Below, one piece after another: positions 7,649 through 21,710 of a DNA stretch of 64,000 bases. The stretch is from assembly GCA_963734495.1 (NCBI GenBank), contig CAVTHK010000009.1, forward strand, positions 96,001 through 160,000, read 5' to 3'. The DNA is from an uncultured Spirochaetota bacterium. GTDB taxonomy: Bacteria > Spirochaetota > Spirochaetia > SZUA-6 > CAVTHK01. The translations under genes were made by a program, and so were the position numbers. Positions within the stretch are counted from its first letter, which is position 1, and each line of letters opens with the position of its first letter. The notes under the pieces are model-generated. The model saw only the letters and a list, made by a program, of their open reading frames with translations. It did not search any database and had not been told where the DNA came from.

Positions 7649-8481
7649 ATGTTCCAGAAGACGGCGTTCTTCAGGTTCTGCGGCGGCTCGGGCTCGTCGT
7701 GCTGCTTCTGTGGGCCTGCTTCCCGGTGTTCTTGCTGTTCCTGTCGACCTTTAAAGCGCCGATGGAGATCTTCAAGTTCCCGCCGACCTTGCTCTTCAAG
7801 CCGACGCTCGAGAACTTCGTCGACGATGGTCAGGACTGGCCGGTCTTCTTCAGGGCGCTGCGCAACAGCGCCATCGTGGCGTTCGGCGCCTCCGTGTTCA
7901 CCGTGCTGGTTTCCACGCCGGCGGGTTACGCGCTTTCGCGCTACCGCAACCGCGTCCTCGAGGGCTCGGCCTTCTTCATGCTGGCCGTGCGCATGTACCC
8001 GCCGATCGTGCTCACCATACCGCTTTTTCCGGCCCTCTCGGCGGCGGGCCTGATCGACACCTACTGGGCGCTGATCCTGATCTACAGCGCTTTCTACGTC
8101 AGCCTCTCGTCGTGGCTGATGAAGACCTACATGGACGAGGTGCCGGTCGAGCTCGAGGAGGCGGCCGTCATCGACGGGGCCAGCGTCTTCCAGCGCGCCA
8201 TGCACGTCGTGATCCCGCTCTCGCTCCACGGGATCGTGGCGACGGCGATCTTCGTGACGATCTTCGCGTGGAAGGAGTACACGCTGGCCTACATCTTTAC
8301 GGGCACGAAGACCCGCACCGCGCCCCTGGTGCTCGAGGAGATGATCAGCCCGGTCACCGGCGTGAGCTGGGGGCCGCTGTTCGCGGCCTCAACGACGCAG
8401 CTCCTGCCGATCCTCGTCTTTATCTGGATGATCCAGAGCTACCTGGTCAAAGGCCTCAAGACGGGGGCGGTCAAAGGATGA
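7649..8481 (+). CDS. Carbohydrate ABC transporter permease (MalG-like), frameshift near the 5' end
   Basis: PTLENF, ELEEAAVIDGA, C-terminal GLKTGAVKG. Confidence 0.85.
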
Positions 8482-9353
8482 AGGCTACGGATGCGGGCGC
8501 GCTGGCGTCCGGGATGCTGCTGGCCCACCCGGGCCTGAGCCGCTTCGAGCCCATGAAGCGGATCGTCTTCTTCGACGACTTCGACAACGGCATCGACGGA
8601 TGGACCGAGCTGATCGGCAACTACGAGGGCAGCCTCGACACGGTGCTCCCGCCCTACCGCGATCACCGGCCGCCGCAGCTTTCCAACCTCTCGATGTGGG
8701 ACACGGGCAGCGTTGGCTCAATGGACGGCACCTACGCGCTCAAGATCGCGACCCGCCCCCGCAAGGGACACCAGGCGGTCGCTCTCAAGCGCGTCACCTT
8801 CCGCAAGGCGGGACCGATCCGCCTGGAGGCCTTCTTCACCTTCAAGCCCGAGGCGAGGGAATTGCTGCTCTCGGACCAGGACGTGCGCTCAGTAGGGCTG
8901 GCGTTCGACCTGCAGGACGATCGGGAGCGGGTAATGCCGCACCTGCGCTACCTGAACTCCCTCGACGGCAGGGCCGAGCAGAAGTGGCAGTACAAGCGCG
9001 AGACCACACCGTTCAGGAAGATCGGCCCCAGCGGCAAGACCGTGTCGCACTACCACCTGGCTCCGGAGGGATGGCTCGACGTGCCTGGCGGGACGCAGAA
9101 GCTGTGCTACAACGAGATCGCCACCAAGCACAACTGGCACTACCTCCGCCTCGACTTCGACCTCGCCTCGATGAAGTTCCTCGCATTCCAGTGCAACGAC
9201 CGCGCCTTGGATGTCTCGGGCCTCGAGTGCATCCGCATCCCGGCGATGGCCAATCTCTGGTGCATGCTCAACGTGGTGTTCTTCGCCGAGGCCGACGCGG
9301 ACAAGCGCGCGTTCTTCTACCTCGACTCGGTGCTGCTCTCGGGGGATTTCTAG
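8478..9353 (+). CDS. Conserved hypothetical protein (DUF6772-like, from memory), copy 1
   Basis: ATGA overlap with the permease; FDDFDNGIDGW, GSMDGTYALKIATRP and KLCYNE...NWHY are shared with the paralog at 11507-12466. Confidence 0.75.
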   Translation: MKATDAGALASGMLLAHPGLSRFEPMKRIVFFDDFDNGIDGWTELIGNYEGSLDTVLPPYRDHRPPQLSNLSMWDTGSVGSMDGTYALKIATRPRKGHQAVALKRVTFRKAGPIRLEAFFTFKPEARELLLSDQDVRSVGLAFDLQDDRERVMPHLRYLNSLDGRAEQKWQYKRETTPFRKIGPSGKTVSHYHLAPEGWLDVPGGTQKLCYNEIATKHNWHYLRLDFDLASMKFLAFQCNDRALDVSGLECIRIPAMANLWCMLNVVFFAEADADKRAFFYLDSVLLSGDF

Positions 9354-9677
9354 ATGGTCAGGCGAAGCACGAACGCCGTGATCGAGCGCAACGTCGTCTG
9401 GACCGGGCCGTTCGAGACCGAGCCGTACGAGGCGGGGTGGGCCGCCGAGGCTGTGTTCTTTGTCCGCTCCCTCGAGGGAGCGGCGGAGGGCGCGGTGGCG
9501 CGGGTGCAGATCACGCCCGACGGCATGCACTGGTGCGACGAGGGTACGACTCTCGCGTTGCCTGCCGCGGGCCAGACGACATTCTGCAGGGTCACCAACT
9601 TCGGCAACTGGCTCCGCCTCGTCGGCAGCACGGAACAGCCGATCACGGTGCTCGTGACGCTCTCGCTCAAGGAGTGA
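9354..9677 (+). CDS. Small conserved beta-rich protein (DUF6385-like, from memory), copy 1
   Basis: Directly abuts the upstream gene; TEPYEAGWA-EA-FFVR, DG-W-DEG and FG-WLRL are shared with 11175-11510. Confidence 0.75.
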   Translation: MVRRSTNAVIERNVVWTGPFETEPYEAGWAAEAVFFVRSLEGAAEGAVARVQITPDGMHWCDEGTTLALPAAGQTTFCRVTNFGNWLRLVGSTEQPITVLVTLSLKE

Positions 9678-11088
9678 TGCGCGCCGGGTCGGCTGCGCCC
9701 TGCTCCCGCACGCCCGCGTCCACGAGCCCGCCAAGGTCGGTGATCCGTCTGCGCAACTCCGCAGTGTCCACCTCCCTCACCTTGCCGCTGCCCCGCGCGG
9801 CCATCGCCGCGGCCACCCCGGCCGCCTGGCCGGTGGCCATGGCCGTGCCCATGACGCGCGCGGAGCCGTGGGCTTCGTGTGTGACCGAGATCGGCCTGCC
9901 GGCCACGAGGACGTTCTCGACGCCGAGCGGCAGCAGGCAGCGGTATGGGATCTGGTAGGCGCCGACGCGCCGGCGCACCTGGGCGTTGGTGCCGGCGGGC
10001 GAGTGGATGTCGATCACGTGACCGCCAAGGGCGATGGCGTCGGCGAACCTGCGGCGCTCGGTGATGTCCTCCTCGCTGAGCGTGTACTCGCCCCTGATCC
10101 TGCGGGTCTCGCGGATCCCTATCTGCGCGGCGGTGTCGATCAGGTACGCTCCGCGGAACTCCGGAAAGTGGTCGCGGAGAAAGTCGACAAACTTGTGCAC
10201 GTGGTCGCGCCCCGTGATCGCGCTGCGCGTGAGCGTGTCCGTGTCGGTCGCGTCGCCCCACAGGCGAACCATGTTGACCATGACCTCCCCCGGGCGGATC
10301 GTGCTGCCCCAAAAAGTCCACGGGCCGCCGAACACCGGCAGCTCGCCGGAGGCCACGAGGGCCTCGGCCTTCTGGCGCACCGCAGGCGGCACGTAGGGCC
10401 GCGTGATGTCGCCGAGAGCCGCCGTGTCTACACCGCCGAGGCGGAACATGAGGGTCATGGGCTGCAGCGCGCCGTCGCCCGGCCGGCCGGCCTCAAACGG
10501 AGCGCCGGCCATGGCCGCCACGTCCGCGTCGCCGGTGGCGTCGACGACGACTCGCCCGGCAATCGCCGCCCGGCCGGACTTGCTCTCCACGATGACGGCC
10601 GCGACCCGGGCGCCGTCGCGGGAGACCGCAACCGCGAGGGAATGGCAGTGCATGCGCACGCCGGCCTCGCGCGCCAACTGGTCGGCCACCCACTTGAGCA
10701 TTTCGGAGTCAAAGGGCACGTCGCCGCGATTGCCGCCGCCTGTCGCGGAAACCGCCGGACCGTCGCCGGTGCCGTCGGCCACCCCGGTGTAGTCAAAGGT
10801 GTCCAGCAGCGCGCCTCCGTTGCGCACCAGGCGTTCTACGATCTCCCAGGGGACCCCACCGATGATCCGTCCGTCGCCGTAGCGGTGGCGGGCCCCGGCG
10901 AAAGGGCCGACGAGACCCGCCGTTGCCATCCCGCCGAGAAAGCCGTAGCGCTCGACGAGGGCCGTCCTCGCCCCCTGGCGCGAGGCAGCCACGGCTGCGC
11001 ACAGCCCCGCCGGCCCTCCACCCACGACCAGCACGTCGGTCTGCTCGATGACCGGGATGCGGCGTTCGGGTTCTGTGACATACATCAT
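9667..11088 (-). CDS. FAD-dependent oxidoreductase (PF12831-like)
   Basis: DVLVVGGGPAG, LGGMATAG, VDATGDAD, RETRRIRGEY, DIHSP, IPYRCLLP, RVMGTAMATGQAAG. Confidence 0.9.
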   Translation of the reverse strand: MMYVTEPERRIPVIEQTDVLVVGGGPAGLCAAVAASRQGARTALVERYGFLGGMATAGLVGPFAGARHRYGDGRIIGGVPWEIVERLVRNGGALLDTFDYTGVADGTGDGPAVSATGGGNRGDVPFDSEMLKWVADQLAREAGVRMHCHSLAVAVSRDGARVAAVIVESKSGRAAIAGRVVVDATGDADVAAMAGAPFEAGRPGDGALQPMTLMFRLGGVDTAALGDITRPYVPPAVRQKAEALVASGELPVFGGPWTFWGSTIRPGEVMVNMVRLWGDATDTDTLTRSAITGRDHVHKFVDFLRDHFPEFRGAYLIDTAAQIGIRETRRIRGEYTLSEEDITERRRFADAIALGGHVIDIHSPAGTNAQVRRRVGAYQIPYRCLLPLGVENVLVAGRPISVTHEAHGSARVMGTAMATGQAAGVAAAMAARGSGKVREVDTAELRRRITDLGGLVDAGVREQGAADPARITP

Positions 11089-11174
11089 GCCTCGGCTCCT
11101 GCGCTCATCGCGCCGGCGCAAGAGCGCCGGCCGCGCCGAATCGTTCTCCCGTGCTCACGGATGCGGCGCGGGGT

Positions 11175-11510
11175 CTACTCCTTGAGAACCAGGTGCACGG
11201 TGGCCTTGATGCGAGGCGTCCTTCCAGTGATCTCGCTGCGGAGGCGAAGCCAGCCGCCAAAGTGCCTGACGCGCAGAAAGTAGCTGCCCAGCGCCGTGAT
11301 GGGCGGAAAGCTGCTGCCCTCGTCGATCCAGTCTATGCCGTCCACCGCGACCTGCACCGCGGACTGCAGCTTGACGCCGGTCCCCGTCATCTCGTGGACT
11401 CGGACAAAAAACATCGCTTCGCTCGCCCAGCCCGCCTCGTAGGGCTCCGTGGCAAAGTCGCCGGTGAGCTCCTTCATCCTCTCCAGGACCACGGTGTAAA
11501 AGTTTCTCAT
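11175..11510 (-). CDS. Small conserved protein (DUF6385-like), copy 2
   Basis: FATEPYEAGWASEAMFFVR, DGIDWIDEG, FGGWLRL; ends in LKE like copy 1. Confidence 0.75.
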   Translation of the reverse strand: MRNFYTVVLERMKELTGDFATEPYEAGWASEAMFFVRVHEMTGTGVKLQSAVQVAVDGIDWIDEGSSFPPITALGSYFLRVRHFGGWLRLRSEITGRTPRIKATVHLVLKE

Positions 11511-12466
11511 CGCGCATCCCCCTTGCCCGTAGAGTTGACGATCGAGTCAACGAACAGGAACACCCTGCGGTCGGTATCGGCCTCCACCCACAGCACCGGG
11601 TTGAGCAGCCAGTTGATGCGCGGGTAGGCGTCGACGTGCGTGGCGTCGATGCCCCTGAGGTCAAAGACCCTGTTGACCGAGCGCAGCTCGACGTACCGGC
11701 GCGCTGCCAGGTCAACGGTCAACGCAAAGTAGTGCCAGTTGATCTTGTCCGGCGTCTCGTTGAAGCAGAGCTTCTGGGCTCCGTCGCGCACCTCCATGAA
11801 AGCGTCTCCGCGGCCGTCGGGGTAGCGCCTGCCGAGCCACTGCGGATCGATGCCCCGCCTGAGGTAGACCTTGCGGCCGGCCGCGGGGCTGTTCGGGTCC
11901 TCGCCCACCGCGCTCTCACCCATGTCTCCCCAGTCCTGGTCGCTGCCCTCGCTGGCCTTGAGGATCTGCCAGCGCTGCTGCATCTTTCCGTCGGCGGCGT
12001 TCATGTAGCGAGCGCCGTAGAACGTCCGGACCTCGTCGTCCTGCACGTCCCACATAAAGCCAAAGGCGCGGATATCGCTGTCGCCGATGCCCGGCCGGTC
12101 CTGCTCAGCCTTGAAGGTGTACCACATCTCGCAGCGCAGGAGCTGCCGTCTGAGAAAGGTCAGGCGCTTGATCGCGTGACCGATGCTCCCCTTGACCGGC
12201 TGCTCCGAAGCCTTGCCCGCCTGCGGCCGCGTGCCGATCTTGAGTGAATAGGTGCCGCTCATCGACCCGTGCGTGCCGACGTAGCCGAACGTGGCCGAGC
12301 TGAGCATTGGCGGACCCCAATCGGAGTAGCGTTGCTGCGACGGGAAATAGTCGATCACGTCCTGCCTCAGGTTGGGCGAGAGGACCACCCAGCCGCAGAG
12401 GCCGCGGTCGAAGTCGTCGTGGAAGATGATGTCGGACAAAGGGTCATAGTTGTAGAGACTGCCCAT
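11507..12466 (-). CDS. Conserved hypothetical protein (DUF6772-like), copy 2
   Basis: RBS AAGGAGG; HDDFDRGLCGW, GSMSGTYSLKIGTRP, KLCFNE...NWHY; ATGA overlap with the small gene. Confidence 0.75.
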   Translation of the reverse strand: MGSLYNYDPLSDIIFHDDFDRGLCGWVVLSPNLRQDVIDYFPSQQRYSDWGPPMLSSATFGYVGTHGSMSGTYSLKIGTRPQAGKASEQPVKGSIGHAIKRLTFLRRQLLRCEMWYTFKAEQDRPGIGDSDIRAFGFMWDVQDDEVRTFYGARYMNAADGKMQQRWQILKASEGSDQDWGDMGESAVGEDPNSPAAGRKVYLRRGIDPQWLGRRYPDGRGDAFMEVRDGAQKLCFNETPDKINWHYFALTVDLAARRYVELRSVNRVFDLRGIDATHVDAYPRINWLLNPVLWVEADTDRRVFLFVDSIVNSTGKGDAR

Positions 12467-12855
12467 CGGCCCTCCTTGTATCCGGCCTGCAGGCCGCGCC
12501 TTGCCCTCGCGCCGCCTCCTGCCGCTCCATGGGCCGATTATACTTCTCGACGCCCGCAAAACGCGACCGCAGAGAGCCGCGGTCAGGGGGCCAGGCCCCG
12601 CGAGATCCCGGGCGTGGGTGCGGGGCGCGGTTCACAACCTGTGGACCGCTCGGCCGCCGGCAGACGAGTCTGGACGGCCGCCTCGATCCTCCTGTCGTCG
12701 CAGCCGATGATCAGTCCATGAAGCCCCGATCGCAAAATCGGGGCGGCGACTCCGACCGGCTGTCCTCGTTTTCCGCCGAGCCCGGCCGCGGCGGGCCGCC
12801 CGCGCCCTCCGCGCGGTCCCGGAGGGCCGGCGCGGGGGCCGCTGCAAAAAAGGTC

Positions 12856-12884
12856 TTGATTTCTGTCGACCGATGCGTTATTCT
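12856..12884 (+). promoter_or_regulatory. sigma70-type promoter of the kamA operon
   Basis: TTGATT, 17-bp spacer, TATTCT, preceded by an A-tract (UP-like). Confidence 0.6.
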
Positions 12885-13029
12885 CCGCAGCAAAACGGGA
12901 GGGGAGGTCAGACCCCCGCACCCGCGGGGACTATGTTTCGCGGAAAGCCATAAAAAACGTGGGTTTCTCGCATCCGGGGGAGCGTGAGTCTCACCCCACA
13001 CGTATAAGTCCGGAGGATAAGAACAGATA

Positions 13030-14364
13030 ATGGAAACGTCGCAGCCCGCTACTGAGGAGGCAGAACCTCCGAGCAGTAGCCCCGATCATGAACGTACGCC
13101 TCTCAGCTCCCACAACAGTGTCGGCTATGTTCAGCCCTTCTTGCCGACGTACCCCTACCTAGAAGAACCGATCACCGTCCCTGACAGCCTCATCAGGACC
13201 CCGCGCTCCGCGTTCCCGCTGGGCGAGATCGCCGAGGAGTTCCGCGGCCGCTGGTTCCCCGAGGTCAATCACCGCACCTGGAGCGACTGGCGATGGCAGC
13301 TGCGCCACCGCGTCCGCACGCGCGAGGAGCTGGAAAAGTACGTCCGTCTCACGGACGACGAACGCAGCGCCATCGAGCGCCACCGCGGGCCCCTGCCCGT
13401 CGCCGTGACCCCGTACTACCTCAGCCTCGTGAGCGTGAACGACGCCGCGCAGCCGCTGCGGCGGACCGTGATCCCCACGACCGACGAGTACCTCCAGACG
13501 CCCGGCGAGGCGCTGGACCCGCTCGACGAGGATGCGGACAGCCCGGTGTCGGGCCTGGTGCACCGCTACCCGGACCGCGTGCTGTTCCTGGCGACCGACT
13601 TCTGCTCGGTCAACTGCCGCTACTGCACGCGCAGCCGGCTCATCACCGTGGAAGACGGCCATCGCTACGGCGTCTCGCAGTGGGAGCGCGGCATCGCCTA
13701 CGTGGCGGCTCACCCCGAGGTGCGCGACGTCCTCATCTCGGGCGGCGATCCGCTGACGCTCGCCGACGAGAAGATCGAGTGGCTGCTCACGCGCCTGCGC
13801 GCGATCCCGCACGTCGAGTTCATCCGGATCGGCACAAAGACGCCCGCGGTCCTGCCGCAGAGGATCACCCCCGCGCTCACGCGGATGCTCAGGCGCTTCC
13901 ACCCGCTGTGGATGAGCCTGCATTTCACGCACCCCGACGAGCTCACGCCCGAGACCAACGAGGCGTGCCGCAGGCTCGCGGACGCGGGCATCCCCCTCGG
14001 CAGCCAGACGGTGCTGCTCAAGGGCATCAACGACGACGTCGACACGCTCAGGCGCCTCTATCACGGGCTGCTGAAGAACAGGGTCAAACCGTACTACCTC
14101 TTCCAGTGCGACCCGATCTACGGTTCGTCCCACTTCCGCACGTCGGTCTCGAAAGGCCTCGAGATGATCCAGGGCCTGCGCGGCCACACGACCGGGTACG
14201 CCGTTCCGAGCTACGTGATCGACGCCCCCGGCGGCGGCGGCAAGGTGCCCCTGCTGCCGCAGTACCTGGTGGGCCGCGACGGCGACGACATCGTGCTGCG
14301 CAACTACGAGGGCAAGGAGTTCCGGTACCGCGACCCGGTCGACCCTCGGGCCGGCGGGGCGTAA
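13030..14364 (+). CDS. kamA: KamA-family radical SAM aminomutase (lysine 2,3-aminomutase-like)
   Basis: WSDWRWQL, LVHRYPDR, CSVNCRYCTR (CxxxCxxC), SGGDPL, SQTVLLKGIND, YYLFQCD, IDAPGGGGK (PLP lysine). Confidence 0.92.
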   Translation: METSQPATEEAEPPSSSPDHERTPLSSHNSVGYVQPFLPTYPYLEEPITVPDSLIRTPRSAFPLGEIAEEFRGRWFPEVNHRTWSDWRWQLRHRVRTREELEKYVRLTDDERSAIERHRGPLPVAVTPYYLSLVSVNDAAQPLRRTVIPTTDEYLQTPGEALDPLDEDADSPVSGLVHRYPDRVLFLATDFCSVNCRYCTRSRLITVEDGHRYGVSQWERGIAYVAAHPEVRDVLISGGDPLTLADEKIEWLLTRLRAIPHVEFIRIGTKTPAVLPQRITPALTRMLRRFHPLWMSLHFTHPDELTPETNEACRRLADAGIPLGSQTVLLKGINDDVDTLRRLYHGLLKNRVKPYYLFQCDPIYGSSHFRTSVSKGLEMIQGLRGHTTGYAVPSYVIDAPGGGGKVPLLPQYLVGRDGDDIVLRNYEGKEFRYRDPVDPRAGGA

Positions 14365-14383
14365 CATCGGCCCGCGAGCGACC

Positions 14384-15373
14384 ATGACCGTAGGCATCAC
14401 GTACGACCTCAAGGGGGACTACCTCCGCGAGGGCATGAGCGAAGAGGAGGCGGCGGAGTTCGACAGCCCGGCTACCGTTGAGGCCATCGACACCAGCCTG
14501 CAGGCCCTGGGGTTCGCGACCGAGAGGATCGGTCACCTCAGGGCCCTCCTCGCAAGGCTCGCCTCGGGCGGCCGCTGGGACATCGTGTTCAACATCGCCG
14601 AAGGCGTCCACGGCATCGGCCGGGAGTCGCAGATCCCGGCGATCCTCGACGCCTTCCAGATCCCCTACACGTTCTCGGACCCGATGGTGCTCGGGCTCTG
14701 CCTTCACAAGGGCATGGCCAAGCGCGTCGTGCGCGACGCGGGAGTCCCGACCCCCGACTTCGCCCTGATTGAAAATGAAGGGCAAGCCGCCGGCGTGCGC
14801 CTCGCCTTTCCCGTGTTCGCCAAGCCGGTGGCCGAGGGGACGGGCAAGGGCATCTCCGGCGCGTCGCGCGCCGGGAGCCCGGCCGAGCTCGAGCGCGCGT
14901 GCGCGGAGCTCCTGCGCAGATTCCGCCAGCCGGTGCTCGTCGAGAGCTTCCTGCCCGGCCGCGAGCTCACCGTCGGCATCCTCGGCACCGGCGCGAAGGC
15001 GCGGACGATCGGCGCGCTGGAGATCGAGCTGCACGGGTCCGCCGAGCCGGGCGCGTACACCTACCACAACAAGAAGATGTACGAGGACCGCGTCTCCTAC
15101 CGGCTCGCCGAGGACGCCGTGGCGGCCGAGGCGCGGGAGGTGGCGCTCGCCGCGTGGCGCGCCCTCGGCTGCCGCGACGGCGGCCGGGTCGACATCCGCT
15201 GCGATGCGGCGGGGAAGCCGCACTTTCTCGAGGTCAACCCGCTCGCGGGCCTTCATCCCGTGGATTCGGACCTGCCCATCCTCTGCTACAAGCGCGGCCT
15301 TACCTACGGGGAGCTCATCGCCGCGATCATGGAGAGTGCGCGCTCGCGTCTCGGGGACGCCGCGCGGCCTTAG
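14384..15373 (+). CDS. D-Ala-D-Ala ligase-like ATP-grasp enzyme
   Basis: VFNIAEG, IPYTFSD, KPVAEGTGKGI, LVESFLPGRE, GRVD, LEVNPLAGL. Confidence 0.9.
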   Translation: MTVGITYDLKGDYLREGMSEEEAAEFDSPATVEAIDTSLQALGFATERIGHLRALLARLASGGRWDIVFNIAEGVHGIGRESQIPAILDAFQIPYTFSDPMVLGLCLHKGMAKRVVRDAGVPTPDFALIENEGQAAGVRLAFPVFAKPVAEGTGKGISGASRAGSPAELERACAELLRRFRQPVLVESFLPGRELTVGILGTGAKARTIGALEIELHGSAEPGAYTYHNKKMYEDRVSYRLAEDAVAAEAREVALAAWRALGCRDGGRVDIRCDAAGKPHFLEVNPLAGLHPVDSDLPILCYKRGLTYGELIAAIMESARSRLGDAARP

Positions 15374-15381
15374 GAGGCCGC

Positions 15382-16941
15382 ATGTTCGTCGCGGTCCTCT
15401 ACAACCTGGTCGATCGCAAGGAGAGCGGGTTCCAGAGCGAGCTCGTGGCCGAGAACGAAATCCTCGGCACCGCGAACGGCATCGTGGAGGCGCTGCGCGG
15501 CAGCCACGAGGCCGTCATGCTGCGCGTAAAGCCCGCGATCCTCGGCCGCATCGGCGAGTCGCCCTTCGACGTGATCTTCAACCTCGCCGAGGGGCTGGGC
15601 GACCGGGCCTCCGCAAGCGAGCACCTGATCCCCGCCTTTCTCGATGCGGCGGATCTGCCGTACACGGGCGCCGACTGCGCCTGCATCGCTCTCTGCCGGG
15701 ACAAGGCGCGCACCAAGCGCCTGCTCGCGGCCGCCGGCCTCGCCACGCCGGCCTGGCAGCTCTTCGAGAGCGGGAGCGAGCCGCTCTCGCCGGAGCTCGC
15801 CTTTCCCCTGATCGTCAAGCCGTGCCTCGAGGACGCGAGCATCGGCATCACCGCGGAGTCGGTGGTGCGCGACGAGGAGTCGCTGCGCCGCCGGGTGGCG
15901 CACGTGCTCGAGCACTACCGCGAGCCGGCGCTCGTCGAGCGCTTCATCGACGGCCGCGAGATCAACTGCGCGCTTCTCGGCAACGGCGCATCCGTCGAGG
16001 CGCTGCCGCTCGCCGAAATCGTCTTCCGCCACGCGGGCGATCATCCGCGCATAGTGACCTTCGAGTCCAAGTGGGTCGCGGGCTCGGCGGCGGACCGGGC
16101 GCAGCGGCCGGTCTGTCCGGCGGACCTCGCGCCGGACCTGGCACGCGAGATCGCGGCTGCGGCGCGCGCCGCGTTCGCCGCGACCGGCTGCCGGGATTAC
16201 GCGCGGGTCGACTTCCGCCTGGAGCGGGCCGGCGACGGCGTGACGCGGCCCCTCATCATCGACGTCAATCCCAACCCGGCGATCGACGAGGGGGCGGGGT
16301 TCGCCCGCAGCGCGCGCGCCGCGGGGCTCGCCTACCCGCAGCTCGTCGAGCGCATCGTGGCCATGGCGGCCGCTCGCGGCGGCGCCGGCGCCCGGCGCGG
16401 CAAGCCGGAGCCGGCCGAGCCTGTCGCGGGCAGCAGCCTCCGCCTGGAGCCGCCCGCGCCGCGCCACCTCGCGGCTCTCGCCCGCTGGTTCAACGACGCC
16501 GAGACGGGCCGCTACATGGAGGGCCCGGGCGAGACCTGCACGGTGGCGGAGCTGGCGGAGGCCTTCTTCGTCGGGCGCGCGGACGTCGACTTCGTGGCGT
16601 GCGACCTCCGCACGGGCGAGCCGGTCGGCTACTGCGGGCTCTACGGCATCTCGGGCGGCCGCGCGCAGATCACGTTCCTCGTCGGCGAGGCGGCGCGGCG
16701 CGGCCGCGGCGCGGGCCGCGAGATCGGCGAGCTGCTCGTGCGCGCGGCGTTCGCCCGGCCGGAGATCGACGCCCTCGAGGCGCGCGTCGTGGTCGAGAAC
16801 GAAGCATCGCTGCGTCTGTGCCGGGCGCTCGGGTTCCGCGACGTCGGCCGCCTGCGCGGCTCGCACCGCCTCGGCGACCGGCGGCTCGACGAGATCCTGC
16901 TCGAGCTCACCCGCGAGGATCGAGCGGCGAAGCGGCCATGA
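15382..16941 (+). CDS. D-Ala-D-Ala ligase-like ATP-grasp enzyme fused to a C-terminal RimJ/L-type GNAT domain
   Basis: RBS AGGAGG; FNLAEG, KPCLEDASIGI, ERFIDGRE, DYARVDFR, IDVNPNP; then RRGRGAG and ENEASLRLCRALGF (GNAT motifs). Confidence 0.88.
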   Translation: MFVAVLYNLVDRKESGFQSELVAENEILGTANGIVEALRGSHEAVMLRVKPAILGRIGESPFDVIFNLAEGLGDRASASEHLIPAFLDAADLPYTGADCACIALCRDKARTKRLLAAAGLATPAWQLFESGSEPLSPELAFPLIVKPCLEDASIGITAESVVRDEESLRRRVAHVLEHYREPALVERFIDGREINCALLGNGASVEALPLAEIVFRHAGDHPRIVTFESKWVAGSAADRAQRPVCPADLAPDLAREIAAAARAAFAATGCRDYARVDFRLERAGDGVTRPLIIDVNPNPAIDEGAGFARSARAAGLAYPQLVERIVAMAAARGGAGARRGKPEPAEPVAGSSLRLEPPAPRHLAALARWFNDAETGRYMEGPGETCTVAELAEAFFVGRADVDFVACDLRTGEPVGYCGLYGISGGRAQITFLVGEAARRGRGAGREIGELLVRAAFARPEIDALEARVVVENEASLRLCRALGFRDVGRLRGSHRLGDRRLDEILLELTREDRAAKRP

Positions 16942-16942
16942 C

Positions 16943-17119
16943 ATGACGTGGTTCGACGACCGCTACCAGCAGCTCAAGGAGAAGGAGCAGGAGATCGAGC
17001 GCCTGCGGCAGACGGTTCCTCGCTCTCCCGAGCTCGAGCGCCGGATCGAGGCCATGGCCGCCGAGGTCAAGGAAGCCTGGAGCAACCTCGCGGACGAGAT
17101 CCTCAAGCGGGAAGGGTGA
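16943..17119 (+). CDS. 58-aa helical/coiled-coil protein (below the ORF-track cutoff)
   Basis: ATG 1 nt after the preceding stop; MTWFDDRYQQLKEKEQEIERLRQTVPRSPELERRIEAMAAEVKEAWSNLADEILKREG; host-like G/C-ending codons. Confidence 0.7.
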   Translation: MTWFDDRYQQLKEKEQEIERLRQTVPRSPELERRIEAMAAEVKEAWSNLADEILKREG

Positions 17120-17145: not shown

Positions 17146-18102
17146 CTATTCTTCGCCGGGTCCCTCGTGCGGTTGCCAGTCGGGCGGGTTCCACCAGCAG
17201 CGGCCCTTCTGCCGCACCGCGTCGAGCGCGCGGGCTTCGATGGACGCCAGCTCCGCGGCCGTGCAGGGCCTGAACGCGCTCGCGGCGGTGAACGCCGCCT
17301 CCTGCTCATTGGGGAACGAGAGCCCGAGAAGCGCGACGTCAGGGTCGCGCGTCAGCGTGTAGCGCAGGCACTCCTCGACGCCGAGGCGCGGCAGCACGGA
17401 GTCCGCGGGAGCGGGGGCTCCGCCGGAGCTGACCTTGCCGCGGGGCCTCTGCGAAAGGGGCCGGCTGTAGCCTTGAGTGTCCTGCAGCAGCTTTCCGGCG
17501 CCGAAGGTCTTGAAGCAGACCGTGCCCACGCCGCGCCGCCGCGCTTCGGGCAGGATCTGCGAGACGTAGCGCGGGTGGCAGTAAGGGCCGACGGCGAACA
17601 TGAGGACGTCGCAGAGACCGGAGGCAAGCGCGGCGGCGAGCACGTCGGGGTGGTGGCTGGAGATGCCCCTGAAGCGGCATTTCCCCTGGCGGATGCAGGC
17701 CTCGAGCTGCTCCATGCCGCCGCCGGGCGCGGCGAGCGCCTGCCACGTCGCCATGTCGGAGACTCCGTGGAACAGGAAGAGGTCGACATGGTCGAGGCCG
17801 AGGCGGCCGAGGCTTCCCTCCACCTGGGGGGCGACCGGCTCGGCCGCGTGGTCGATCTTGTCGATCACGAACATGCGATCGCGCACGCCCGCCACCGCCC
17901 GGCCGACGATCTGCTCGCTGTAGCCATCCTCGTAACCGGGCGCGGTGTCGATCACGTTCAGGCCGGCGTCGATGGCGCGGCGCGCGGTGGCCACGCACTG
18001 CTCGATGGGCACCGAGCGGTCGGCGAGATCGCCGATGCCGAGGCGGGTGGCGACGAAGCCCGTTCGGCCGAGCGGCCGCCGCGGCTCGAAAAGCGCTGCC
18101 AT
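17146..18102 (-). CDS. Aldo/keto reductase
   Basis: RRPLGRTG, GLNVIDTAPGY, SEQIVG, SLGRLGLDHVDLFLFH, GISSH. Confidence 0.88.
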   Translation of the reverse strand: MAALFEPRRPLGRTGFVATRLGIGDLADRSVPIEQCVATARRAIDAGLNVIDTAPGYEDGYSEQIVGRAVAGVRDRMFVIDKIDHAAEPVAPQVEGSLGRLGLDHVDLFLFHGVSDMATWQALAAPGGGMEQLEACIRQGKCRFRGISSHHPDVLAAALASGLCDVLMFAVGPYCHPRYVSQILPEARRRGVGTVCFKTFGAGKLLQDTQGYSRPLSQRPRGKVSSGGAPAPADSVLPRLGVEECLRYTLTRDPDVALLGLSFPNEQEAAFTAASAFRPCTAAELASIEARALDAVRQKGRCWWNPPDWQPHEGPGEE

Positions 18103-19016
18103 CAGCTTCCCTTTGCCGCGCTTGCGGCGCGGCCCGCCCGGCTTTCGTCCTGGCGCGCGATCTTCGCGCGGACGCCGGCTTCGGCTTCGCGCCAGATCTC
18201 CTGGATCGCGTCGTCGAAGAAGAAGTAGACCCTCTCCTCGAACGACGTCGTCGCGAGGCGGTTCCAGAACCGCTGCTCGAAGTCCTTCTGGTCCTTCCCG
18301 TACACGTGGTACGAGTCCGCCTGCCAGTTGAGGCGGCCGAGGTCGACCGGCTTTCCGAGCCGCTCCTGCAGGGGGTCGGCCACGAGGCGCCGGTTGAAGT
18401 GCACGAAGCCGAACATGTTCATGAAGTTCGCGCCCCACGCGTCGTTGCTGCGGAAGCGCACGTTGCAGGCGAGGCGGAAGCGGCCGCCGTCCTCGAGCAG
18501 CCGGTACCACAGCGACTGCAGGCAGGGCGGGTCGTACACCTCGAAGTCGAGGAACGGCATCCACGTGATCATCTGGGCCTGCCTCGTGAACGGCTGCGCC
18601 GCGAGCTTGTCCACGACCTTGCGGATCTGGTCGACGCCGGTGCCGGGCCGGCCGGAGGGCTGCCGAGCCTTCTGCCGCCAGGTCCCCCAGTCGGCGAGGC
18701 GCTGGTGGTAGGTGTACTCCCAGCGCGTGTCGAGCGGGTCGTCCATGTTCTTCACCCAGTGGTCCTTTTCGCCCGAGAGCTCCATAAAGTACTCGCGCAG
18801 GTCGTCGATGCCCCCGGGGAAGGCCTTGTGGATCATGGGGTCCTTCCACGGCTCGCGGACCGTGATGTTCATCGTCGCGTCCACCGACGGCGGGTCGCCG
18901 GGGCGGTCGTACTGCGTGGCGACCCGGATGCCGCCTTCGTGCAGCGCGATCAGCGCCCGCTCGTAGGATTCGGCCAGGGTTTCGCCCTCGACGTGGAGCA
19001 CGGGGATGTCGTTCAT
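18102..19016 (-). CDS. thyA: Divergent (archaeal-like) thymidylate synthase family protein
   Basis: YTYHQRL, DQI, TRQAQMITW, DPPCLQ (catalytic Cys), FRSNDAWGANFMN, ADSYHVY. Confidence 0.7.
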   Translation of the reverse strand: MNDIPVLHVEGETLAESYERALIALHEGGIRVATQYDRPGDPPSVDATMNITVREPWKDPMIHKAFPGGIDDLREYFMELSGEKDHWVKNMDDPLDTRWEYTYHQRLADWGTWRQKARQPSGRPGTGVDQIRKVVDKLAAQPFTRQAQMITWMPFLDFEVYDPPCLQSLWYRLLEDGGRFRLACNVRFRSNDAWGANFMNMFGFVHFNRRLVADPLQERLGKPVDLGRLNWQADSYHVYGKDQKDFEQRFWNRLATTSFEERVYFFFDDAIQEIWREAEAGVRAKIARQDESRAGRAASAAKGS

Positions 19017-19122
19017 GGTTGCCGTGATTCTACCACGGGGATTTTCGAAATTGAAGGCGGCTGCGGCGGCCCCCGCCGCCCCACCGCGGCCGCGAGGGGG
19101 CGGGCGCCCGCCCCACCTCGTC

Positions 19123-19177
19123 TTGACGGGGCGCCCGGCCCGCGCTAACATCTGAACATATGAGCCATCGTTCATAT
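19123..19177 (+). promoter_or_regulatory. Promoter plus SmtB/CzrA-type operator
   Basis: TTGACG (19123), 17-bp spacer, TAACAT (19146-19151); inverted repeat ATATGAGC-CATC-GTTCATAT at 19158-19177. Confidence 0.75.
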
Positions 19178-19585
19178 AACGGCCGGGCGCTGAGCATCGC
19201 CGCGGGCCCGGGCGCCGCGGCCGGACCCCGCCGCGCCGCCGCGGCCCGCGCGGGCCGCAAAGCCGGCGCGCGCGGCCCGGGCGTCCGGGACGCCATGCCG
19301 CGCGAGGAGGAGCTGTACGAGCTCGCCGACTTCTTCAAGATCTTCGGCGACTCCACGCGCATCCGCATGCTCTACGCCCTGCACCGCTCGGAGCTGTGCG
19401 TCCAGGACCTCGCCGCCGCGCTCTCGATGGGACAGTCGGCCGTGTCGCACCAGCTGCGGGTGCTCAAGTCTTCGGGCCTGGTGCGCCACCGCCGCGAGGG
19501 CCGCCGCGCCTACTACGCCCTCGACGACGAGCACATCGCCGGGATCATCACCCAGGGACTCACGCACGTCAGGGAGCCGCGATGA
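19160..19585 (+). CDS. ArsR/SmtB-family metal-sensing repressor (start uncertain: 19160 or 19295)
   Basis: LADFFKIFGDSTRIR, ELCVQDLA, QSAVSHQLR, alpha5 metal site DEH-x10-HVRE. Confidence 0.9.
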   Translation: MSHRSYNGRALSIAAGPGAAAGPRRAAAARAGRKAGARGPGVRDAMPREEELYELADFFKIFGDSTRIRMLYALHRSELCVQDLAAALSMGQSAVSHQLRVLKSSGLVRHRREGRRAYYALDDEHIAGIITQGLTHVREPR

Positions 19586-21710
19586 AGCGCTACACGCTGC
19601 ACAACCTGAGCTGCCCGAGCTGCGCGCTGGACATGGAGCGCAGGCTCAACAGCCTCGCCTCCGTCCGCCGGGCGCGCATCGACTTCGCCGCCTCGAGGCT
19701 CGACATCGACACAGCCGACTTTGACGAAGCCGTGGCCGTCATGCGCCGCGTCGAGCCCGCGGTCGCCGTCGTCGCCGAGGACGAATCCGGCGGGCAGCGG
19801 GCCGCGCGGCGGCTGCTGCTCCTGGAGCTGGCGGCCTCGGTCCTGCTGTTTGCCGCGGGCCTCCTCGCGCCCCGCGCGTTCCGGCCGCTCATGGCCGCGG
19901 CCTACGCGGTCGCGGGATGGCGCGTGGCGCTCGCGGCCGTCCGCAACATCGCGCGCGGCTCGGTCTTTGACGAGCACTTCCTGATGATGCTGGCCACCGC
20001 CGGGGCGATCGCGCTCGGCGACCTCTCCGAGGCGGCGGCGGTCATGATCTTCTACCAGGTGGGAAGCCTCCTCGAGAGTCTGGCCGTGGACCGCTCGCGC
20101 CGGTCCATCCGCTCGCTGCTGGCGCTGCAGCCCGAGGTGGCCAGCGTGATCGAGGGCGAAGCGCAGCGCGAGCTGCCTTCGCGCGAGGTCGCCCCCGGGC
20201 AGGAGATCCTGGTCAAGCCGGGCGGGCGCGTTCCGCTGGACGGCATCGTGACCGAGGGCAGATCGGCGGTCGACACCTCGGCCCTCACGGGCGAGTCGCT
20301 GCCGCGCGACGTGGAGCCGGGAGCGGAGGTGCTCGCGGGCATGATCAACGGCGGCGCGGCCCTGCGCGTGCGCGTCAGCCGGCCGTTCGACGAGTCGTCC
20401 GCGGCGCGGATCATGCACCTCGTCGAGGAGGCCGCGTCCCGCAAGGCGCGGACGGAGCGCTTTATCACGAGCTTCGCGCGCATCTACACGCCCGCCGTGG
20501 TCGCCGCGGCGGCGCTGGTGGCGCTGCTGCCGCCGCTCCTCGTCCCCGGGCAGGCGCTCGCGACATGGGTTTCCAGGGCCCTCGTCATGCTCGTGATCTC
20601 CTGCCCGTGCGCGCTGGTGGTCAGCGTGCCGCTCGCGTATTTCGGCGGGGTCGGCGCGGCGGCGCGGCGGGGGATCCTCTTCCGCGGCTCCCAGTTCCTC
20701 GACGCGCTGGCCCGCGCGCGCACGGTGGTCTTCGACAAGACGGGGACCCTCACCGAAGGCACGTTCGTCGTTTCGCACGTGGCGCCGGAGCCCGGCTTCG
20801 GGGAGCGGGCGTTCGTCACCCTCGCGGCGGCCGCCGCCTCGCGGTCCGCTCACCCGGTGGCGCGCTCGGTCTTCGAGCACGGCCGGCTGATGGTCGGCGA
20901 CGCGGAGGTTGCGGCCCTCCGCGTCGCGAGCCACGAAGAGGTGGGCGGGCAGGGCATCCGCGCGCTCGTCGACGGAAAGACCCTGCTCCTCGGCAACGAC
21001 CGGCTCCTGCACACCGAGGGGGTCGAGCACCCGCGGCGGGTGTGCGAGGCTTCGGGAACCGGGGTGCACCTGGCCGTCGACGGCCGGTACGCCGGCGCCG
21101 TCGCGTTGAACGACCGCCTCAAGCCCGACGCGGCGGACGCGGTCGCGGCGCTGCACGCGCGGGGCATCGAGACCGTCATGCTGACCGGCGACACAAAGGC
21201 CGCGGCCGCCGCGGCGGCCGACGCGCTCGGCATCGGCACGGTGCACGCGGGTCTCCTGCCGCAGGACAAGCTGGCCCGGCTCGAGCAGATCATGGCGGAC
21301 AGCGACGCCCGCGGCCGCGCGAGGGCGGCGCCGGCCGCGTCGTGTTCGTCGGCGACGGCATCAACGACGCGCCCGTGCTCTCCCGCGCCGACGTCGGCGT
21401 GGCCATGGGCGAGTTCGGCTCCGACGCGGCGGTCGACACCGCCGACGTCGTGCTGACGAGCGACTCGCCCGCCCGCGTGGAGGACGCGATCCGGATCGCG
21501 TCCCGGACGCGGCGGCTGGTCTGGCAGAACATCATCTTCGCGCTCGCGGTCAAGCTCGTCCTCATCGGCCTCGGCGCCGCCGGCCTCATGACGATGTGGG
21601 GGGCCGTCTTCGGGGACACGGGTGTCGCGGTGCTCGCCGTCCTCAACTCGGTGCGCATCCTCGGCATGGGCACCCCTCTGCCGACCGCCAGGGCCGGGTC
21701 CGCGGCCTGA
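19582..21710 (+). CDS. cadA: Heavy-metal (Zn/Cd) P1B-type ATPase, frameshift near 21320
   Basis: N-terminal CPSC, TGES, SCPCAL, DKTGTLT, HP, TGD; GDGINDAP lies in the shifted frame. Confidence 0.85.

Follow-up and report, generated by a model that had tools for sequence, protein, structure and literature searches.

In pyrrolysine biosynthesis, the radical S-adenosylmethionine (SAM) lysine mutase PylB acts first, and the Ddl-like ATP-grasp ligase PylC then links its rearranged product to an amine. Ngg is a protein in which GNAT and ATP-grasp domains are combined. According to PMC8070244, Ngg performs the N-acetylation and the peptide-bond formation for the osmolyte N-acetylglutaminylglutamine amide (NAGGN). 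AblA and AblB are described to make N-epsilon-acetyl-beta-lysine (PMC9128505), and epsilon-poly-beta-lysine to be the product of KamA and a Pls-type synthetase, while streptothricin carries beta-lysine chains (PMC10522769). The locus described here lies in a stretch of 64,000 nucleotides (hereafter the window) from an uncultured Spirochaetota bacterium (GCA_963734495.1, contig CAVTHK010000009.1, positions 96,001 to 160,000), and consists of a KamA-type aminomutase gene, a gene for a Ddl-like ATP-grasp ligase (G1), a gene for a second such ligase fused to a GNAT acetyltransferase (G2::GNAT) and a small open reading frame (ORF). In our judgement there is an even chance that it encodes a short cytoplasmic pathway to a small N-acetylated beta-lysine amide or di/tripeptide, as a mosaic variant of a widespread and so far undescribed cassette.

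The four genes were arranged head to tail on the forward strand with intergenic gaps of 19, 8 and 1 nt: kamA at 13030..14364 (444 aa), G1 at 14384..15373 (329 aa), G2::GNAT at 15382..16941 (519 aa) and the small ORF at 16943..17119 (58 aa). Ribosome-binding sites of clear GGAGG type were present at kamA and G2. An earlier note, written from the sequence alone, had described a compact four-gene operon; the ORFs, their coordinates and their spacing agreed with this description, but the fourth gene encodes no enzyme and belongs to no family. The complete operon was syntenic in a same-genus genome. Because of this whole-operon synteny, and because the gene set recurred in 51 of 80 fetched loci, the arrangement is far beyond chance. 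None of the four proteins matched a family among the PADLOC models (0 families), and nothing in this search connected them with known defence systems.

The product of kamA was assigned as a radical-SAM/pyridoxal phosphate (PLP) enzyme of the lysine 2,3-aminomutase type from Pfam, NCBIfam and the alignment to the solved Clostridium subterminale lysine 2,3-aminomutase (PDB 2A5H; E 3.5e-135, residues 74-439). It matched LAM_C with 79.5 bits and Radical_SAM with 51.1 bits, and exceeded the cut-off of the KamA subfamily model TIGR00238 (345.2 vs 199.2 bits). All seven of the checked 2A5H residues were kept, namely C125, C129, C132, R134, D293, D330 and K337. The CxxxCxxC Fe-S motif is formed by C125, C129 and C132, and its cysteines, like R134, were present in 50 of 50 cassette KamAs, whereas D293, D330 and K337 were present in 49, the remaining row being gapped and cut short. 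We take K337 to be the PLP-binding lysine, R134 the carboxylate-binding residue, and D293 and D330 the acidic residues that bind the epsilon-ammonium group of lysine. The motifs YLFQCD and VIDAPGGGGK, whose acidic residues the earlier note had singled out, indeed aligned to D293 and to D330/K337, respectively. Its assignment of KamA to the lysine type is likewise supported, since all tested determinants were kept in the window's protein and in 49 of 50 cassette KamAs. AblA was the top-scoring model for 20 of 20 sampled cassette KamAs, and the window's KamA was 62-74% identical to the KamAs of genomes from the same order. Two further KamA paralogues were seen in the same genome outside any ligase cassette (contig C11:412066-413035 and contig C5:7965-8916); each of these matches runs across two reading frames, a sign of frameshifts or assembly errors.

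Both ligases carried the Dala_Dala_lig_C domain (PF07478), G1 with 93.2 bits and G2 with 104.9 bits (residues 114-326 of the fusion protein), and were 33% identical to each other; the earlier note had called them two divergent Ddl-like ligases. The G2 domain comprises residues 1 to ~340 of the fusion (15382..16401). With the best Ddl model, G1 scored 146.2 bits and G2 144.6 bits against a cut-off of 243, and both were far under every Ddl/Van cut-off. For the active sites, 45 G1-type and 73 G2-type sequences were aligned with E. coli DdlB as reference, and 16 functional positions were confirmed to carry the expected residues in the DdlB sequence. The residues for ATP, Mg and catalysis, K97, K144, E180, E187, K215, R255, D257, E270 and N272 (DdlB numbering), were kept in both families; in the window's G2, E270 is replaced by D, a change common to all 7 sequences of its clade. 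The substrate-binding residues were replaced. The D-Ala-binding E15 was not kept in either family, and H63 was changed to E, which was invariant in the G1 family, present in 70 of 73 G2-type sequences and found in both ligases of the window. Y216 became W in both families (W in the window's G2, K at residue 231 in its G1). S150 was kept in the G1 family (T in the window's G1) and was A in the G2 family and the window's G2; S281 was kept in the G1 family and in the window's G1, and was again A in the G2 family and the window's G2. L282 was C in the G1 family (D in the window's G1) and G in the G2 family, including the window's G2. A canonical Ddl was encoded elsewhere in the genome (contig C5:190703-191809), with the checked Ddl residues kept and M at the position of L282. 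Judged by these residues, both ligases look catalytically competent and do not look like D-Ala-D-Ala ligases. The possibility, raised in the earlier note, that they make only D-Ala-D-Ala is thus disfavoured by the changed D-Ala residues and by the canonical Ddl elsewhere.

The Ddl/VanA enzymes are nevertheless the closest characterised family by sequence, and G1 and G2 share their fold and their catalytic ATP/Mg residues. In contrast to them, the window has two dedicated paralogues adjoining KamA. Profile searches of the PDB with G1 and G2 returned mainly true Ddl/Van ligases and more distant ATP-grasp enzymes, so no solved structure appears to lie within either family. At E <= 1e-10 nothing matched but Ddl/Van ligases and a single L-amino-acid ligase, to which the G2 profile added chains of carbamoyl-phosphate synthetase; no PylC structure was among them. 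PylB/PylC resemble the window's enzymes in that a radical-SAM rearrangement of lysine is followed by ATP-grasp ligation, but PylB is not a PLP aminomutase of the KamA type, and the operon has no PylD. In the ESM Atlas, G1 matched only clusters named 'Ddl family protein'. The AlphaFold2 model of the fusion protein was confident (pLDDT 91.3, pTM 0.87), with low confidence only at linker residues 335-337, and the top Foldseek matches of its G2 half were Ddl structures with a TM-score (target) of ~0.8. A third G-type ligase, 38% identical to G2, was observed in the same genome (contig C13:450074-451222, reverse strand; locus L127); it stands without KamA or GNAT and adjoins genes for a MoxR AAA protein, DUF58 and DUF4350.

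The GNAT domain of the fusion (residues ~353-519; 16438..16941) matched Acetyltransf_3 (PF13302) at residues 353-486 with 67.6 bits, over the cut-off of 25.4. The fusion described in the earlier note was confirmed, but its label 'RimJ/L GNAT' held only at the level of this Pfam family, which is that of RimJ/RimL, and overstates the likeness. The closest solved relatives in the PDB profile search were the aminoglycoside acetyltransferase AAC(6') (8q6u, 1.4e-20) and the SpeG-type diamine/spermidine acetyltransferases (~1e-13), ahead of RimJ (3igr, 6.8e-10). AAC(6') and SpeG acetylate primary alkyl amines of polycationic substrates. In 32 loci of other genomes, a 158-aa ORF between G2 and KamA was found to be a GNAT of a stand-alone type, which was closest to PDB 2r7h (E 9.2e-47, profile search), a solved member of its family. 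The profiles of the fused and the stand-alone GNAT shared generic GNAT likeness only (hhalign 94.8%, 12% identity). Two unrelated GNAT subfamilies therefore fill one slot of the cassette, which suggests that selection acts on the acetylation step itself. The structural-genomics entry 2r7h was deposited as 'putative D-alanine N-acetyltransferase', a name that probably reflects Ddl-like neighbours rather than an assay.

The distribution of the cassette was examined with a profile of 23 G2::GNAT proteins, which retrieved 587 relatives, and 80 loci were kept and examined by tblastn. KamA was detected in 58 of these loci, KamA together with at least two ATP-grasp genes in 51, and 40 of the 51 also had a GNAT detectable by tblastn; in the Bathyarchaeia loci, a further adjacent GNAT had been missed by this search. 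The ligase family counted 1262 representatives at E <= 1e-30 in a library clustered at 50% identity. Carriers of the cassette were found in Ignavibacteriota, Bacteroidota, Thermodesulfobacteriota, Planctomycetota, Omnitrophota and Spirochaetota, and also among Bathyarchaeia, Thermoplasmatota, methanogens and Asgard archaea. Lineages differed in gene order. Ignavibacteriota and Bacteroidota had G1-G2-GNAT-KamA, Thermodesulfobacteriota had KamA-G2 and, at a distance of ~5 kb, G1, and the arrangements in Bathyarchaeia were divergent. Every neighbouring gene pair was also found fused. KamA::G1 occurred as single ORFs of 738-813 aa in four archaeal loci (L016, L017, L019, L020), and tandem G::G proteins in 4 of 6 Pfam-scanned proteins and in 26 of the 150 best representatives. 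The GNAT fusion, for which the earlier note had proposed a survey of its frequency, was seen in 28 of 120 listed clusters and, among the 150 best representatives, in 22, with named members from Asgard archaea, Thermoplasmatota and Methanoperedens. No matching protein was found for fusions longer than 910 aa, which is weak evidence. The conserved co-location and the three kinds of gene fusion support a functional link among the four activities. The open literature that was searched gave no account of the cassette or of what it makes, and the earlier note knew of no identified product either.

Two variants of the cassette differed in their surroundings. In the Thermodesulfobacteriota loci L026-L045 and L088, it was interleaved with genes for a PAS histidine kinase, a sigma-54 activator and a single-domain response regulator, a PUA/SAM methyltransferase gene followed G2, and no GNAT was detected nearby. 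In L023 (Methanotrichaceae) and L022 (Methanosarcinales), a KamA-G1-G2::GNAT cassette was preceded by genes for an amino-acid permease and an ion channel and followed by a macro-domain gene.

Compared with the mainstream cassette, the window's copy has the same four activities and one ligase each of the G1 and G2 type, but its GNAT is fused to G2 and belongs to the PF13302, AAC(6')/SpeG-like group instead of the 2r7h-like stand-alone type, its G2 lacks an Asp in an active-site loop, its first ligase is of a short-loop subtype (G1b), and a mini-protein gene is added. The G1b subtype is common to L001, L123, L030 and L106, which are same-order relatives and Thermodesulfobacteriota, whereas the archaeal fused cassettes have a G1 of the long-loop 'KW' subtype. 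Of 61 genomes searched, the window's own (G000) included, just two had the G2::GNAT fusion, namely this one and its relative of the same genus, and the same-order cassettes L120 and L121 consist of KamA, a G2-like ligase and a stand-alone GNAT. In the G2 tree, the window's clade fell among the archaeal fused forms. By these comparisons the window's copy is a mosaic variant, in which an order-typical KamA is combined with a G1b ligase and an archaeal-like G2::GNAT. A horizontal transfer of G2::GNAT is not claimed, as the support in the tree was weak (Shimodaira-Hasegawa-like approximate likelihood ratio test, SH-aLRT, 81-82) and composition warnings were raised. The mosaic make-up, the distinct subfamily of the fused GNAT, the loss of the Asp in fused G2s and the clade-restricted mini-protein are new here.

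The sequences show that all four domains are catalytically equipped and that they are functionally linked, whereas we infer which step follows which, what the co-substrates are, which nitrogen is acetylated and what the product does in the cell. KamA would convert L-lysine to beta-lysine by radical-SAM/PLP chemistry. G1 would then activate a carboxylate as acyl phosphate and form the first amide bond involving beta-lysine, G2 would form a second amide bond, and the fused GNAT would use acetyl-CoA to acetylate a free primary amine of the product or the substrate of G2. This order is proposed from which neighbours fuse. The end product might most plausibly serve as a compatible solute, a stress protectant or a nitrogen-rich metabolite. 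By analogy with AblA/AblB and Ngg, a small N-acetylated beta-lysine amide or peptide would be the simplest product. Like the window's operon, the AblA/AblB system encodes a KamA-type enzyme together with a GNAT, so that beta-lysine is made and its amine neutralised by acetylation (PMC9128505), and AblA is the model that matches the window's KamA best. The two systems differ in the two integral ATP-grasp ligases of the window, in its GNAT, which is not AblB, and in its KamA, which stays under the AblA cut-off. The comparison drawn in the earlier note held as an analogy only: when the genome (83% complete), the fused GNAT included, was searched in six frames, no match to the AblB family (TIGR03827) reached E <= 0.001. 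Ngg and its partner AsnO offer the other precedent, in which one protein couples N-acetylation to an ATP-dependent peptide bond and a small acetylated peptide osmolyte is formed (PMC8070244). Unlike the proposed product, NAGGN contains no beta-amino acid and is made without an aminomutase and with an amidotransferase partner; Ngg was compared by description only.

Several observations weigh against this pathway. For KamA, the best NCBIfam match, AblA, reached 469.2 bits and remained under its equivalog cut-off of 525.4, and the models of glutamate and arginine aminomutase also scored 416 and 403 bits; moreover, that D293 and D330 separate lysine- from glutamate-type enzymes is a presumption. 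The window's G1 departed from its family consensus at several positions of the active-site loops, for example K231 in place of the usual W. In the fetched stretches of 22 of the 80 loci, some of them ended by the contig, no KamA was present, and single G2-type ligases also occurred in other contexts. Relatives of Ignavibacterium album and Melioribacter roseus were represented by L041 and L050; of these two loci, L041 had KamA, and L050 had a G2-type ligase on its own. At the position of DdlB G276, an Asp was carried by 61 of 64 unfused G2s and by 0 of 34 fused G2s; the fused ones had N or D two residues further on instead, and the loop motif read NPNPAID in the window's G2 and NPNPD(I/L)(S/T) in unfused G2s. 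Since the fused G2s are without the Asp of the unfused ones, the fused variant may yield another product than the mainstream cassette. The co-substrates could not be read from the sequences. An osmolyte role would stand by analogy only, because no transporter, regulator or salt-related gene was consistently linked to the cassette, and its neighbours in Ignavibacteriota and Bacteroidota were housekeeping genes such as recG, dnaG, gpsA and plsY.

The 58-aa mini-protein starts 1 nt past the stop of G2::GNAT. Homologues were found at the equivalent place in L001/L119 and in L129, a locus from a metagenome, so that it came after G2::GNAT in each of the clade's three lineages with downstream DNA. 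The C-terminus EILKREG was identical across the homologues, and synonymous changes were found in 9-12 of 55 codons. AlphaFold2 predicted a two-helix hairpin (helices 3-22 and 29-57; pLDDT 88.7). No family match was obtained in Pfam, NCBIfam or PADLOC. The mini-protein was present in 2 of 61 related genomes and not found in the other 59, and no equivalent small ORF was seen in the other cassette loci. Since it is absent from the cassette elsewhere, the mini-protein, judging from this distribution, cannot be a core part of it. A metagenome scan gave one close relative, which was cut before the operon start.

Other products were considered for the same four activities. G1 and G2 might act iteratively, one as initiator and one as elongator, similarly to RimK or cyanophycin synthetase, with the GNAT capping or priming the chain. 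The product would then be an oligomeric or polymeric amide with an acetyl cap, built from beta-lysine only or from beta-lysine and a second residue in alternation. It would be made without ribosome or non-ribosomal peptide synthetase (NRPS) and would serve as a cationic polymer or nitrogen reserve. The two distinct ligase paralogues were always paired and often tandem-fused, the fused GNAT is similar to enzymes that acetylate polycationic amines, and the cassette of Thermodesulfobacteriota adjoins sigma-54 activator and histidine-kinase genes, all of which would fit a polymer. Natural beta-lysine homopolymers are described in PMC10522769, and in the epsilon-poly-beta-lysine and streptothricin systems treated there a KamA-type aminomutase is encoded beside the enzyme that forms the beta-lysine amide bonds; these enzymes, however, are NRPS-like adenylating synthetases of actinomycete antibiotic pathways and not ATP-grasp ligases. 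We regard both the iterative mechanism and its polymeric product as unlikely, given that G1 and G2 are most closely related to the Ddl enzymes, whose reaction is a single ligation, that Pfam detected no membrane, export or primer-binding domain in the operon, and that a degrading enzyme was not consistently linked (an M24 peptidase occurred in only 8 loci). If this reading were true, many anaerobic bacteria, and archaea with Asgard and DPANN lineages among them, would contain a cationic polymer that was not known before and that serves for storage or protection. Somewhat less likely still is a modification of a protein or peptide, in which beta-lysine would, for example, be attached to a carboxyl group on a protein of the ribosome or of translation, or in which the mini-protein would be the acceptor or carrier, following a LysW/RimK-like logic. 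The immediate adjacency of the mini-protein gene to G2::GNAT, its retention in the three lineages, its invariant C-terminus and confidently predicted fold, and the membership of the GNAT in the RimJ/RimL family are consistent with this idea. The restriction of the mini-protein to 2 of 61 related genomes is not, and the archaeal and bacterial cassettes had no shared candidate target alongside. An EpmA-type ligase over the cut-off was not found in the genome, which counts only against the known elongation factor P (EF-P) route.

The kinship of both ligases to Ddl in sequence and fold would also agree with the synthesis of a precursor for the cell envelope, for instance an alternative dipeptide for peptidoglycan or another wall polymer, with beta-lysine as a constituent. 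Such a precursor is improbable because the cassette is carried by murein-free archaea, including Thermoplasmatota, Bathyarchaeia and Asgard, and because the D-Ala-binding residues were lost; in addition, the ligase scores lay far under every Ddl/Van cut-off, the genome has its canonical Ddl elsewhere, and no Mur-type or wall genes were linked. The ligases could, finally, be unrelated passengers, while KamA and the GNAT make N-epsilon-acetyl-beta-lysine like AblA/AblB or KamA feeds lysine fermentation. Besides the score of KamA with the AblA model, this explanation may draw on a report of a divergent 'ablB' homologue in Methanothrix (PMC9128505); the Methanotrichaceae locus L023 carries the cassette, and the reported homologue might be its fusion gene. 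However, the ligases were co-inherited with KamA and fused both to KamA and to the GNAT, which argues against passengers. With these fusions, and with no AblB-family match in the 83% complete genome, a plain AblA/AblB-like role has very little probability in our estimate. No lysine-fermentation gene is recognisable in the operon, since it contains no further Pfam-annotated enzyme gene, and the scanned flanks held DUF6772 genes, an FAD oxidoreductase and an aldo/keto reductase. We therefore retain the small N-acetylated beta-lysine amide or di/tripeptide as the preferred product, at the confidence given at the outset.

Upstream of kamA, a promoter-like element TTGATT-17 nt-TATTCT was located at 12856..12884 on the forward strand. 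It had one exact match in the window and was kept in the same-genus locus L001, which suggests a promoter function. The element agrees with the consensus at 8 of 12 positions and was not listed by the promoter scan, because the scan needs 9. It is followed by a putative 5' leader of ~140 nt (12885..13029, forward strand), which ends in a GGAGGA ribosome-binding site and contains blocks nearly identical to L001, with one compensatory base pair between the two sequences. The leader had no match in an Rfam search, its folding z-score of -0.55 was no better than that of shuffled sequences and gave no sign of special structure, and a search with its sequence pattern matched only the same-genus contig. 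A search for sigma-54 sites upstream of kamA found none.

Farther upstream, two DUF6772 genes (8112-9353, forward strand, and 11507-12559, reverse strand), each followed by an ORF of ~107-111 aa, are mirror-oriented around a gene for a PF12831 FAD-dependent oxidoreductase (9667-11121, reverse strand). The ORF after the first of them (9354-9677) had a weak match to DUF6385. A DUF6772 gene also precedes kamA in L001. Downstream, a convergent aldo/keto reductase gene ends at 17146, 26 nt beyond the mini-protein ORF. The start of this gene is overlapped by a thymidylate-synthase-like ORF (18102-19175, reverse strand), whose best NCBIfam match was the archaeal 'thy_syn_methano' with 90.1 bits, under the cut-off of 174.55. 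An ArsR-family regulator and an ORF that resembles a heavy-metal P-type ATPase, as read from its translation, follow at 19160-21700 and make up an ordinary metal-resistance pair.

The gene set for the four activities occurs in many phyla of both domains and has no known product. Were this product identified, the biochemistry of anaerobes would gain a beta-amino-acid metabolite, and possibly compatible solutes or polyamides of a new class, and a large Ddl-like family that is now annotated as 'D-alanine--D-alanine ligase' would be given a function. The fused variant, with ligase and acetyltransferase in one confidently modelled protein, is convenient for work in vitro.

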